This document shows, piece by piece, positions 961 through 58,143 of a stretch of 64,000 nt of DNA (positions are counted from its first letter, which is position 1; the number at the start of each line of letters is the position of its first letter). The DNA comes from Eledone cirrhosa. Lineage: Eukaryota. The notes below the pieces were generated by a model. The model did not search any database and had not been told where the DNA came from. It was given only the letters and a program-made list of their open reading frames with translations. Both the position numbers and the translations under genes were made by a program. Location: positions 34,367-98,366 of the forward strand of contig CAXHJY010000320.1 in assembly GCA_964016885.1 (NCBI GenBank). The letters run 5' to 3'.

Positions 961-1706
961 ATACATTATGAAGAGAGAAGAAACATTTAGATATAATTAG
1001 TAATAAAATGTATCATACCTAAACTGTTCCTAAATTCCTCGACTACGTAGTTTCGTGGCATAAACAAAAACAATATATCAAAGATATAGAGTCCTTGCGA
1101 GGTCTGCCAACTTATCAAGAGGATACCTCATTTTACTAGTCTCAAGAACGCGTCTACACGACGTGAGAAAGAATCCCAAAAGGCGGAGGGGGAGATAGTC
1201 ACGCGATATAACGGTCGAGAAACAGAGCTAAGCCTCTTATAACCACGAAAAAAATACCACGGAGGCGGAGGGGGTATTCATATCGAGGCCGTAGAAGAGG
1301 TAGTGAAGAAGGCGAGAAGTATGAGTAATGGAAGCTTTCCAGTTGTCCCCACACCTCAAAGATTGCTCGACCAGAGGGAGTTATTAATACATTTAGAAAC
1401 ACACAGATACATGCGGACACACACATATATACATGAATGCATCCGCACCCAACTGTGAGTTAAGGGTGCCAACTTCACCGATGTTGCTCAATGAATGACT
1501 GGGACAGACCAATTCAGTTTGAACCAGACTGAACCAGTATCAGAGTTAAAAATACATTATGAAGAGAGAAGAAACATTTAGATATAATTAGTAATAAAAT
1601 GTATCATACCTAAACTGTTCCTAAATTCCTCGACTACGTAGTTTCGTGGCATAAACAAAAACAATATATCAAAGATATAGAGTCCTTGCGAGGTCTGCCA
1701 ACTTAT
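961..1706 (-). mobile_element. Retrozyme/Penelope pLTR-like element: 591-nt unit plus 155-bp direct repeat
   Basis: 961-1115 identical to 1552-1706; contains hammerhead; TA flanks; no ORF. Confidence 0.75.
1036..1123 (-). ncRNA. Type I hammerhead ribozyme, U3:A8 core variant
   Basis: Minus: tcctc-TTGATAA-gttggca...tgccac-GAAA-ctacgtag-TC-gagga; 5-bp helix I, palindromic helix III, GUC site. Confidence 0.8.
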
Positions 1707-1954
1707 GTATATATATATATATATATGTATATGTATATATGTATGTATATATATATATATATATATATGTATATATATATATATATATATGTATATATAT
1801 ATATATATATATATATGTATATGTATATGTATATATATATATGTATATATATATGTATATGTATATATATATATATATATGTATATATATATATATGTAT
1901 ATATATATATATGTATATATATATATATGTATATATATATATATATATATGTAT

Positions 1955-3850
1955 AAGCATGTTCTACAACGTGAGGACCAAAAACGTGAGGTGTTCAGGA
2001 TTGCTAGGCAATGTGTCAAGGAAAACAGTGATATTGTCGGGGAGAAGTGTGTACTTAACAATGACGGCGTACTTGCCATCACCGACAAGAAGGTAGCTTG
2101 GAAGTGTCACTATGAAAGGCTACTAAATGAGGAGAATAAATGGGAGAAAGACAGTCTCCCCCACATCGACCCAATAGAGGGACCAGCAGTGTTAGTCGAG
2201 GGTAGTATAATAAGTAAGGCAATCAAAGATATGAAGACAGGCAAGGCGGCTGGGCCTTCGGAAATAGTTGCCGAGATGCTGAAGGTATCTGGTACGGTGG
2301 GACACACCATGGTCACCTGGATAGTCAACCAAGTCATACAGAATGGGGTTGTTCCGAAGGACTGGCGTAGCAGCATTATCGTTAACTGTTATAAGGGTAA
2401 AGGAGATGCCCTAGATAGGAGTAACTATAGAGGCATTAAATTAATCGACCAGGTCATGAAGGTCACGGAAAAAGTAATAGTGCAACTAATCAGAGAGCGA
2501 ATTAATCTAGATGAAATGCAGTTCGGGTTTGTGTCAGGCAAAAGTACCACAGACGCTCTTTTCATAGTACGACAACTACAGGAGAAGTACCTAGCTAAAG
2601 GTAAACCCCTCTACTTAGCTTTTGTCGACTTGGAGAAACCCTTCGACAGAGTCCCCCGCTCCATTATCTGGTGGGCTCTTAGAAAACTAGGTGTTAACGA
2701 ATGGCTTGTGAGGGCTATACAAGCCATGTATAAAGAAACAGTCAGCAAGGTTAGAATTAACAACGAATATAGTGAAGAGTTTAGCGTAAAAGTTGGCGTC
2801 CATCAGGGCTCTGTTCTCAGCCCCCTACTATTTATTATTGCCCTTCAGGCTATAACAGAGGAGTTCAAGACCGGCTGCCCATGGGAACTCCTATACGCAG
2901 ACGACCTGACACTCATAGCTGAATCAATGGCCGAGCTAGAGAAGAAATTCCAAACATGGAAGCACGGCCTAGAGTCAAAAGGACTTAAAATTAACCTGGC
3001 TAAGACTAAAGTTCTAGTTTGTAGGAAAGAAAACAAGGCGGCGGTCCCTTCTGGGAAATGGCCGTGCTCGGTGTGTAGGAAAGGCGTAGGTAGAAACTCC
3101 ATTTTATGTCCTAAATGCAAAGTATGGGTGCATAAAAGATGTAGTGGGATCACAGGTAAGCTAACTAAGAACATAGATTTTACATGTGGCCGGTGTTCTG
3201 GTGCAATAAGTAGCAGCAAGTGCCCACAAAATACTAGCTCTTTCAATTGCGCAGAGGGCTCTATAGAAATAGTGGACAGCTTCCGTTACCTGGGTGATAA
3301 AATCAGCAGTGGGGGAGGGTGCTCTGAAAGTACAGTAGCTAGAGTCAGAACTGGTTGGAAAAAGTTCAGAGAGCTTATACCACTATTAGTTGCTAAAGGG
3401 TTCTCCCTAAAAATAAAAGGCAGGTTGTACGATGCCTGCATACGAACAGCAATGTTGCATGGCCGTGAGACCTGGGCATTGTGTGCAGAGGATATACGCA
3501 GACTAGAGAGGAACGAAGCTTGCATGCTCCGCTGGATGTGTAACAGTAATATACGTGAACGGCAAAGCATAAATGAACTAAGGAAAAAATTAGAGATAAG
3601 AGGGATCAGATGTTGTTTACTCGAGAGAAGGCTACGTTGGTATGGACACGTGATGCGCATGAAAGTCGATAGCTGTAGAACAAAGTGCAGGGCAATAAAG
3701 ATAGACGGTAGCCATGGAATAGGCAGACCTAGAAAAACCTGGGACGAGCTGATAAACTCCGACCTCACACACTTACACCTCTCCAAGACAATGTCACTGG
3801 ACCGAGACCATTGGCGGTACTCAGTAACAGAGAAGACCCGCCTTACCTAA
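1955..3850 (+). CDS. RTE reverse transcriptase, partial (the ORF-track start in TA is spurious)
   Basis: [42 protein letters not shown]-like Cys cluster, [16 protein letters not shown]. Confidence 0.9.
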
Positions 3851-54224: not shown

Positions 54225-57200
54225 TTGAATTAGTATGGTATAGACAAGTACATATGTTGTTTAGGTGTATGATATTGTCATATAATATATATATATATAT
54301 ATAATATATTATATATATAATATATATATATATATATAATATATATATATATATATAATATATATATATATATATATATAATATATTATATATATAATAT
54401 ATATATATATACATAATATATATATAATATATTATATATATAATATACATATATATAATATATAATATATATAAATATATATAAATATATATATATATAT
54501 ATATAAATATATATAATATATATAAATATATATAATATATATATATAATGTATATATAAATATATATAATATATATATATAATGTATATATAAATATATA
54601 TAATATATAATATATATATAATATATATATATAAATATATATAATATATAATATATATAATATATATAATGTATATATAAATATATATAATATATATATA
54701 TAATGTATATATAAATATATATAATATATAATATATATATATAAATATATAATATATATATATATAATATATAATATATATATATAAATATATAATATAT
54801 ATATATATAATATATAATATATATATAAATATGTAATATATATATATAATATAAATATATAATATATATATATAATATATATAAATATATAATATATATA
54901 AATATCTAATATATATAAATATATATATAATATATATATATATATATATTATATATATAAATATATATATAATATATATATATATATATTATATATATAA
55001 ATATATATATAATATATATATATATATATATTATATATATAAATATATATAATATATATATATATATATATTATATATATAAATATATATAATATATATA
55101 TATAATATATATATATAAATATATATAATATATATATATAATATATATATATATAAATATATAATATATATATAAATATATAATATAATATATATATATA
55201 TATATAAATATATAATATAATATATATATATATAATATATATATAATATATATTATATATATAATATATATATGTATAATATATATATAATATATACATA
55301 ATATATACATAATATATATATATATATATTATATATATAAATATATATAATATATATATATATATATATAATATATATAAATATATATATAAATATATAT
55401 ATAATATATATATAATATATATATAATATATATATAATATATATATAATATATACATAATATATATATATAATATATACATAATATATATATATAATATA
55501 TACATAATATATATATATAATATATACATAATATATATATATATATAAATATATAAATAATATATATATAAATATATATAATATATAAATATATATATAT
55601 AAATATAAATAATATATATATAAATATATATAATATATAAATATATATAATATATATATAAATATATATAATATATAAATATATATAATATATATAATAT
55701 ATAAATATATAAATATATATAATATATAAATATATAAATATATATATAAATATATATATATATATAAATATATATATATATATATATATATAAAAATATA
55801 TATATATATATATAAATATATATATATATATATATATATATATAAATATATATATATATAAATATATATATATATATATAAATATATATATATATATAAA
55901 TATATATAAATATATATATATATATATATATATATATATAATAAATATATATATATATATATATATATATAAATATATATATATATATATATATAAATAT
56001 ATATATAAATATATATATATATATAAATATATATATATCTATATAAATATATATATATATATAAATATTTATATATATATATATATATATATATATATAT
56101 AAATATATATAAATATATATATATATATATAAATATATAATATGTATAAATATATATAAATATATATATATATATATATATAAATATATATGTATAAATA
56201 TATATAAATATATATATATATATATATATATAAATATATAATATGTATAAATATATATAAATATATATATATATATAAATATATAATATGTATAAATATA
56301 TATAAATATATATATATATATATATATAAATATATAATATGTATAAATATATATAAATATATATATATATATAAATATATATATATATATATAATATATA
56401 TAAATATATATATATATATATATATATAATATATATAAATATATATATATATATATATATATAAATATAATATATATATAATATGTATAAATATATATAA
56501 ATATATATATATATATATATATATAATATGTATAAATATATATAAATATATATATATATATATATATATAAATATATATAAATATATATAAATATATATA
56601 TATATATATATATATAAATATATATATATATATATATATATATAAATATATATATATATATATATATAAATATATATAAATATATATATATATATAAATA
56701 TATATAATATATATAAATATATATATATATATAATATATATAAATATATATAAATATATATATATATATAATATATATAAATATATATATATATATAATA
56801 TATATAAATATATATATATATAATAATATATATAATATATAATATATAATATATAATATATATATATATATATATAATATATATAATATATAATATATAA
56901 TATATATATAATATATAATATATAATATATATATATATAATATATATAATATATATATATATATGTAATATATATATATAATATATAATATTTTTATAAT
57001 AATATAATATTTTTATATATATATAATATATATATATAATATATATATATATATAATATATATAATATATATATATATAATATATATATATAATATATAT
57101 ATATATATAATATATATAATATATATATATATAATATATATATATATATATAATATATATATATATAATATATATATATAAATATATAATATATATATAT

Positions 57201-58070
57201 ATATATAATATATATATAATATATATATATATATAATATATATATATATAATATATATATATATATATATATATATATATATATATATATAAATATAATA
57301 TAATATATATATATATAATATATATAATATATATATATAATATATATAATATATATATATATAATATATATAATATATATATATATAATATATATAATAT
57401 ATATATATATATATATATATAAATATAATATATATATATATATATATATAATATATATAAATATAATATATATAATATATATATATATATATATAATATA
57501 AATATAATATATATATATATATATATATATATATATAAATATATATATATATAATATATATATAATATATATAAATTATAATATATATATATATAATATA
57601 TATAATATATATATATATAAAATATATATATATAATATATATATATATAATATATATAATATATATATATATATATATAATATATATATATATATATAAT
57701 ATATATATATATATATATATATAATATATATAAATATATATATATATATATAATATATATAATATATATAATATATATAATATATATATATATAATATAT
57801 ATAATATATATATATATAATATATATAATATATATAATATATAATATATATAATATATATAATATATATATATATAATATATATAATATATATATATATA
57901 GTATATATAATATATATATATATATAATATATATATATATAATATATATATATATAATATATATATAATATATATATATATATATATATATAATATATAT
58001 AATATATAATATATATAATATATATATATATATATATATAATATATATAATATATATATATATATAATAT

Positions 58071-58143
58071 AGTACGTTATTCCGGGTTGAATCGGAGGTA
58101 ACCACAGTAAGTAAGGTACTCAGAGATTCCTGATGATTTCTAA
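58071..58143. mobile_element. Internally deleted copy of the 47395-47497 insert, reversed
   Basis: Reverse complement matches TTAGAAAT(C/T)ATCAGGAATCT..TGAGTACCTTACTTACT..AATAACGTACT. Confidence 0.7.

Follow-up and report, generated by a model that had tools for sequence, protein, structure and literature searches.

A 64,000-nucleotide (nt) stretch of the Eledone cirrhosa genome (assembly GCA_964016885.1, contig CAXHJY010000320.1, positions 34,367 to 98,366), referred to here as the window, contains short inserts with hammerhead ribozymes that are probably the 3′ ends of Penelope-like elements (PLEs) fixed to (TA)n tracts. As read from sequence, the inserts fall into 11 families (F1 to F11), of which five are ends of coding PLEs, three are non-coding tandem families and three are so far without a parent, and in the Hydra-type and non-coding families the ends are found 2-5 nt ahead of a bulged hairpin that likely positions the reverse transcriptase (RT). 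With a modest lean, we also favor the proposal that the twin RNA form of this hairpin (UAU-N2-7-GCUC-stem-loop-stem-UN-GAGCAC) is a clade-wide docking site of Hydra-type Penelope RTs, with one dimer subunit per start site, and that unrelated non-coding retrozymes are mobilised by carrying the pair.

An earlier, sequence-only reading of the window counted about ten largely unrelated inserts, close to the 11 families found at its sites, and tied a single insert to a coding element. Five families are so tied (F3, F5, F7, F10 and F11), and these inserts, part of a majority it took to be non-coding, are truncated ends of coding PLEs. Ten families were searched genome-wide with the window copy as query, 39-40 candidates being scored for each and the top matches being biased to full-length ones; F5 copies were gathered from loci retrieved for other families. 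The searches returned 727-3340 first-look candidates per family, bearing out the expectation of genome-wide families. The five coding families are 5′-truncated, often folded-back PLE ends, three of Hydra type, one of Neptune type and one of Poseidon or Nematis type. F10 (50962..52447, plus strand) is a 5′-truncated Hydra-clade PLE with the C-terminus of a GIY-YIG endonuclease (51235-51468), a 1-kb 3′ untranslated region (3′UTR) and a hammerhead at 52397-52437, preceded by an inverted, tailed arm of the pseudo-long terminal repeat (pLTR; 50962-51233, hammerhead 51118-51078). A coding parent is found at 20/20 F10 loci, and contains a single open frame of 713 codons (L341:392-2530) with RT followed by C-terminal GIY-YIG and the motifs RLRWR, SDKT, LYRDD and YIG. 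The CxCX5C linker and the CxxC and CxH motifs flanking conserved E and N residues, with no CCHH, which define the Hydra clade, are present in F10, the F11 parent and a further family, K. Pfam gives no match for the F10 open reading frame (ORF) and a GIY-YIG match below cut-off (E=0.001) for the F11 parent; the 476 homologues retrieved are without informative names. The F10 tandem unit of 3259 bp exceeds the size of less than 3 kb given for the Hydra clade (qualified by "generally" in PMC8557442). F10 copies are about 98% identical, and the short end is followed by TA in 44/63 copies, with read-through in 13 more. An assignment of F10 to Neptune was dropped, as its sequence motifs match the Hydra clade.

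F11 (54025..54280, minus strand; hammerhead 54219-54175, hairpin at 54114) is the 3′ end of another Hydra-type PLE, whose endonuclease is reached in 3/25 loci, and F5 (37087..37286; hairpin at 37214, plus strand) is a fold-back of a Hydra-type 3′ end cut inside stem II, so that hammerhead 3′ halves alone remain (37166); a Hydra-type ORF end is joined to the F5 hammerhead in 10/12 loci. A near-complete Hydra-type element, family K, lies on the minus strand of a genomic locus (L275) and carries both hairpins, of which the second closely resembles that of F1, as well as a U3-A8 hammerhead. F3 (29522..30140, minus strand) comprises a pLTR with 3′UTR, hammerhead (29785-29751) and ORF start. Its coding parent is present in 25/25 loci and, in the copy at L154, carries a CX4CxxC linker, the C..C..H..H (CCHH) pattern and weak RVT_1 and GIY-YIG matches below cut-off, motifs by which F3 is classed as a Neptune-type coding PLE. 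A second Neptune-like family, unlisted earlier, is represented by a 3′ end without hammerhead (10650..10741, minus strand), with terminal sequence shared with L436 and L445. F7 (45058..45539) consists of the pLTR and inverted arm of a coding Penelope/Poseidon- or Nematis-type PLE, with a variant hammerhead (45246-45275, plus strand) overlapping the ATG; PLE protein is matched in 25/25 loci, mostly just the N-terminus within the pLTR. The F7 parent has a DKG motif and a cysteine cluster ahead of the endonuclease, and because of this cluster Nematis is possible besides Penelope/Poseidon; its motifs allow a Poseidon- or Nematis-type assignment as a possibility. The ATG of the F7 hammerhead (45252-45302) opens a 16-codon frame that stops at a candidate splice donor, an arrangement also known from Penelope elements with introns.

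The three tandem families form head-to-tail arrays with periods of 591 (F1), 558 (F6) and 615 nt (F8). F1 (961..1701, minus strand) is represented by 1.25 units, with a U3-A8 hammerhead at 1118-1041, a truncated repeat near 1627, and hairpins starting near the equivalent of 956 (unit copy near 1546) and near 1382. F6 (39854..40218, plus strand) is part of a unit with a hammerhead at 40068-40139 and the short end, and F8 (46565..47350, plus strand) comprises 1.27 units with hairpins at 46630/47245 and 46736 and a degenerate hammerhead-like motif at 46969. No contiguous PLE ORF is found in 30 loci of each, bar one ambiguous F8 neighbour, and F6 gives a PLE protein match in 0/30. A satellite-like F6 array extends over about 87 kb (G000:C2:312579413-312666091; L083-L110) and is a possible source locus. 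A search of Rfam for another ribozyme in F8 gave none, and K was rejected as the sequence parent of F1 for want of a BLAST match.

An unlikely explanation is that most inserts are independent non-coding retrozymes, with hammerhead-made circles copied by PLE RT into TA tracts. F1 and F6, which lack an ORF, do have the retrozyme form, in which every non-coding unit contains a complete type I hammerhead, and two further non-coding hammerhead tandem families of 467 and 310 nt occur elsewhere in the genome (L264, L303, L316; L155, L231, L284); these lack the Hydra hairpin and may be served by another helper. F8 units differ by 0-5 changes within an array (11 pairs), whereas pairs drawn from different arrays (160) show a median of 12; such homogeneity fits copying in one pass from a circle or from a multimer of uniform sequence. 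Rolling circle and multimeric transcript nevertheless fit such arrays equally and are not separable, F1 units being almost all identical (copies at least 99% identical). Furthermore, 5/11 families continue into PLE ORFs, F2 and F9, for which no parent was located, have no tandem unit and show variable fold-back points, and F8, whose hammerhead motif is broken, still forms young arrays. The sequence-only reading is borne out in the PLE link, the TA preference and the existence of non-coding tandem families (F1, F6 and F8), which share the Hydra cis-signal and may be moved in trans; its suggestion of mobilisation in trans does not extend to the five coding families.

Identification of the inserts as PLE ends fixed to TA tracts rests further on the insert ends, counted here in nt after the hammerhead cleavage site. 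Most families have two fixed 3′ ends. Fold-back inserts combine a single end of either kind, in agreement with the tail and the paired start sites described in PMC11167929. The distance between the two ends is 80-165 nt for Hydra-type and non-coding families, about 60 nt for F3 and 40 nt for F7. F10 ends at 29 (27 copies) and 116 (12 copies), with hairpins at 31 and 119; F1 at 80 (19 copies) and 245-250 (12 copies), with hairpins at 85 and 250; F6 at 86 and 201-205, with hairpins at 87 and, by eye, about 206; and F8 at 279 (21 copies), with a hairpin at 284. The modal end overlaps a TA run by at least 3 nt in 13/14 cases, F3 and F7 included, against a chance of about 7% per position, a count that local alignment may inflate. 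The 5′ junctions are variable and cluster at microhomologies or hairpins (F9 at +7/-45, F5 at -35 to -45, F11 at -167/-169).

The hairpin in the tails has the consensus RYTC-stem-loop-stem-TN-GARY, in the forms ACTC/GAGT, GCTC/GAGC and GTTC/GAAC, and is common to families D, E, F1, F2, F5, F6, F8, F9, F10, F11 and K; the 3′ ends in Hydra-type and non-coding families typically fall 2-5 nt before it. A second hairpin follows the long end wherever read-through exists (F10, F1, F6, F8, K). The hairpin is absent from the tails examined of F3, F7, F4, G, H, J and Fx and from the second Neptune-like family, of which 4/13 loci were caught by the anchor; F3, F7, G and H share no other end motif than the UAU-type overlap. 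An even sample of the genome, 100 evenly spaced 10-kb stretches totalling 1 Mb, contains the hairpin in 16/37 long tails, compared with 0.7% in shuffles and 2% in random stretches.

Beyond this genome, metagenome sequences were examined by aligning F10 and 31 homologues, giving 78 loci at 38-45% identity, of which 47 have a match beginning within the first nine residues and 100 nt or more of upstream sequence, and represent 43 distinct Hydra-type regions. One hairpin occurs in 37/43 (shuffles 1.8%) and two in 22 (0.1%), the first lying between -137 and -93 and the second between -71 and -37 relative to the ORF start, with AC following GAGC in 55/59 and TAT preceding in 42/59 (background 0.23). 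Among 34 loci with a 3′ pLTR copy, 19 are informative, and 12/19 stop 0-4 nt before a hairpin. With sequence-only anchors, inner pairs 1-3 are formed in 52, 38 and 33 of 53, against means of 41, 22 and 21 in column shuffles and beyond all 5000 of these, which ignore relatedness among the sequences; pairing is 0.82 in register and 0.25-0.38 in slid registers. From these alignments, the stems of the bulged hairpin are read as covarying and the structure as conserved in Hydra-type elements outside this genome.

The twin motif could instead be real and act as a DNA site for a promoter or for endonuclease recognition, or as a translation signal, with RT merely stalling or priming at the nearby UAU. 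We regard this as improbable. The second hairpin does lie 37-71 nt ahead of the ORF start in metagenome elements, GCTC/GAGC forms a spaced dyad, and a Drosophila tail is required for endonuclease recognition, as cited in PMC11167929. However, the inner stems covary around a bulge fixed at 2 nt, which points to a single-stranded fold, the non-coding F1, F6 and F8 retain both hairpins without an ORF, and ends stay within 5 nt of hairpins across spacings of about 60 to 165 nt. Several observations nevertheless weigh against identifying the inserts as PLE ends positioned by the hairpin, in addition to the limits on the TA overlap and the column shuffles given above. Lone hairpins fold weakly (z 0.0 to -2.5), the motif was derived post hoc from this genome, and the first F8 hairpin is preceded by an end in 0/14 copies. 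Among metagenome elements, 6/43 show no hairpin, 5/19 ends stop elsewhere and 2 more just before near-misses, and a descriptor hammerhead lies upstream in 5/47 loci, many contigs being short. No parent or tandem period appears in the genome copies examined of F2, F4 and F9, no sequence-level parent was located for F1, F6 and F8, and the anole Poseidon starts at sites without target homology (PMC11167929).

That the hammerhead product instead defines the template, its cut end (often ending in UAUAUA) pairing with (TA)n or RT running off at the cut, is favored by the helix III loops of the even sample, many TA-like and 21/92 either ATATATAT or ATATGTAT, but is hardly credible and was rejected for the template end, as the distance from the cut down to the 3′ ends is 20-265 nt, only 6/470 arms start within 1 nt of the cut with hot spots elsewhere, and in vitro insertion is unaffected by hammerhead mutants (PMC11167929). 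Hammerhead cleavage therefore sets neither end.

For PLE ends positioned by the hairpin, insertion would begin with nicking of (TA)n by the GIY-YIG domain, as suggested by the known preference of the clade. RT would then bind the hairpin, and the nicked 3′ TA end would pair over 3-4 nt with the UAU just 5′ of it, at the place where overlap is observed in the junctions. The two hairpins would provide a pair of start sites, each probably serving one strand of the target, giving the short end on one side and the tailed end on the other that are observed; this step borrows the dimer model of PMC11167929. Both cDNAs would stop early and join at the observed junctions, at microhomologies or hairpins and often within the hammerhead, to give fold-back inserts of 140-400 bp. 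Non-coding families that keep the hairpins, and with them the signal shared with Hydra-type elements, would be copied in trans by Hydra RT as the head-to-tail arrays seen here, with circles or multimers of RNA as template. Cleavage by the hammerheads probably takes place in dimers and may yield circular RNA.

Of the families for which no parent was located, F2 (36650..37052) consists of two inverted arms with the short end at the left, the tailed end at the right and a hairpin at 36963 (plus strand), and a related fold-back insert (29277..29490; hairpin 29364, minus strand) contains two 3′ half hammerheads joined near 29430. F4 (30148..30355, minus strand; hammerhead 30243-30201) is an older family with relatives 80-87% identical. 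F9 is a 140-bp insert of two inverted arms (47357..47495; hairpin 47431, plus strand), and a remnant with partial tail and hammerhead 5′ half lies at 58072..58135. An origin of F9 as the 3′UTR of a Neptune-type element, suggested by one locus (L067), was rejected and the locus taken for a nested chimera, as 39/39 other copies stop at query base 212. Amplification of F2, F5 and F9 as fixed palindromic units was likewise rejected, since fold-back points vary, though hot spots exist; the arms are separated by 164-209 nt in F2 and 35-96 nt in F5. An end of family E without hammerhead (40253..40408, plus strand; hairpin 40322) was also unlisted earlier.

The hammerheads themselves were read by hand and with a descriptor, with coordinates given from C3 to H17. 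Nine of the 12 previously listed are intact, one is doubtful, one mutated and one unsupported; the listed positions fall within about 10 nt of one motif end at every site, and all four half-motifs (1627, 29430, 37166, 58125) are present as truncated arms. For the type I core, 7/12 are canonical or U3-A8, two more are U4A and three fail or are doubtful. The canonical CUGANGA core is found in six motifs, those of F3, F4, F6 (with a long stem II) and F11 and the two of F2 (36743-36705, minus strand, and 36858-36901, plus strand, the latter with a 5-nt duplication in helix III); F1 has the U3-A8 core and both F10 motifs the U4A core, which is family-wide. The doubtful F7 motif carries two core changes, U4A and A6U, that are family-wide, 28/36 occurrences being identical. 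The F9 motif (47408-47372, minus strand) is a mutated copy that carries G8A and has lost 2 nt from helix III, with intact relatives, and the hammerhead placed at 46964 in F8 falls away, as its GAAA box and helix III are broken across the family. Five window motifs are recognised by the descriptor, which recognises 0 in 30 block shuffles, and a stricter first version finds 3 at a score of at least 12 and 0 in 60 shuffles; the descriptor overlooks several motifs that are good by hand reading, making its counts lower bounds. Rfam lists no hammerhead among the best 150 of 306 whole-window matches, nor in three sub-regions. By these readings the window hammerheads are genuine and above chance, with self-cleavage predicted. 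Helix III is palindromic in 71/92 even-sample motifs, palindromes being rewarded by the descriptor, and is not palindromic in F3, F9 and F10. The palindromes are family-dependent (ACTAGT, ATGCGCAT, ACGCGT, ACAATTGT and others; even-sample stretches L241-L340) and could serve as family-specific dimer codes.

The even sample contains 92 motifs in 27 clusters, compared with 2, 0, 0, 1 and 0 in shuffles. The resulting 92/Mb (bootstrap 63-124) is to be set against 5 per 64 kb, or 78/Mb, in the window, whose family diversity had been called striking and whose motif density is ordinary. Density is uneven, with 68 motifs in the first 600 kb of the sample and 24 in the next 400 kb, and extrapolation to 3.0 Gb suggests about 190,000-370,000 hammerheads (near 3x10^5), from a 1-Mb sample that over-weights the six largest contigs and in which both arms and every array unit are counted. 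The TA flanking noted in the window extends to the genome, as (TA)5 lies within 200 nt downstream of 66/89 motifs with sufficient room, against a background of 0.17.

The system is of a known kind at ordinary density, and what is added is the conserved twin hairpin that ties start sites, tail and non-coding families to Hydra RT, in a likely functional link. Published work already covers hammerheads in PLEs, (TA)n targeting by Hydra elements and retrozymes derived from PLEs (PMC4209133, PMC8557442, PMC7229834, bioRxiv 10.64898/2026.07.22.740005), and Hydra-1_Obim of Octopus bimaculoides is inserted in (TA)n (supplement of PMC8557442, Craig et al. 2021). Hydra-clade PLEs resemble F10, F11, F5 and K in the C-terminal GIY-YIG, DKT, CxCX5C linker, CxxC and CxH, in hammerheads and (TA)n insertion, and in inverted 5′-truncated arms with a tail at one end (PMC8557442); F10 differs by its 3.26-kb unit and U4A core, and tails are 80-165 nt here and 30-40 there. 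The words "hairpin" and "stem-loop" occur nowhere in the supplement text of that paper, and its searched passages do not mention a twin hairpin. Minimal PLE hammerheads are alike in being type I with palindromic helix III and an extra base at the start of stem II, in the U3-A8 variant, in opposite-strand pairs 100-700 bp apart and in many families per genome (Cervera and De la Pena 2014, PMC4209133), whereas about 2,000-9,000 motifs per genome are reported there, with different descriptors, against about 190,000-370,000 here, and family-wide U4A and U4A+A6U cores are not met in its consulted text.

Non-LTR retrozymes are, like F1 and F6, tandem repeats of a non-coding unit that contains a single type I hammerhead (PMC7229834; bioRxiv 10.64898/2026.07.22.740005). 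The F1 and F6 unit lengths fall inside the 51-972 bp range of the preprint, which proposes retrozymes as PLE derivatives and reports 1 of 9 Xenopus dimers cleaving. In contrast to published retrozymes, F1, F6 and F8 share with one PLE clade a structured cis-signal and end geometry but not sequence, insert in (TA)n with inverted arms and, in F8, spread with a broken motif. The Anolis Poseidon element PAc likewise has two internal RT starts giving a tail, an AT-rich target and a dispensable hammerhead (Frangieh et al. 2024, PMC11167929), and F7 is like it in having a 40-nt tail and a hammerhead placed over an ATG, the cut lying 24 nt beyond this ATG in F7 and 26 nt in PAc. The RT starts of PAc fall in an AC-rich stem-loop that shares no homology with the target, whereas a 3-4-nt (TA)n overlap is seen here and Hydra-type ends precede the bulged hairpin. 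In Octopus vulgaris, 31 Penelope-like families are recently active, and "ribozyme" does not occur in the text consulted (PMC13282606). Neither the twin hairpin nor a count of cephalopod hammerheads was found described in the literature searched, a scope outside which subscription journals and Repbase notes lie.

The window has 27% GC, about one third of it low-complexity TA, and contains LINE fragments that we take to be RTE-type and CR1-like. RTE-type frames with RT and an internal PHD-like finger lie at 48079-50442, where they are matched by Pfam, and at 1961-3850. Other features include a repeat in two copies with a C2H2-like coding remnant (383-912 and 39060-39420), a tRNA-like Rfam match of 29.2 bits that is probably a SINE head (38975-39032, minus strand) and a 25-nt minisatellite of about 19 copies (33504-33977). 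The (GAT)n tails of RTE-type LINE/SINE copies lead directly into long TA tracts at 4293, 38490, 38655, 39800 and 50811, and may seed tracts later used by PLEs. TA-type tracts of 10.5 kb (52446-62979) and 6.1 kb (8173-14320) shift in unit pattern beside each insert; they might have been lengthened through repeated PLE nicking, or may partly be assembly artefacts.

According to PMC11167929 and bioRxiv 10.64898/2026.07.22.740005, it is an open question how PLE RT selects its RNA and the sites at which it starts, and likewise by what animal retrozymes are moved. For the genome itself, a hammerhead count of some 10^5 is suggested, above the published counts compared, and the PLE ends provide an annotation rule for its very many small TA-flanked repeats. 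The hairpin pair is a small mutable element, and with F10 as a young intact helper and F1 as a near-identical passenger its role is testable. If the twin hairpin is indeed the docking site, it would supply the missing molecular connection from animal retrozymes to their helper, and any RNA could be directed into (TA)n by attaching this signal of about 100 nt.

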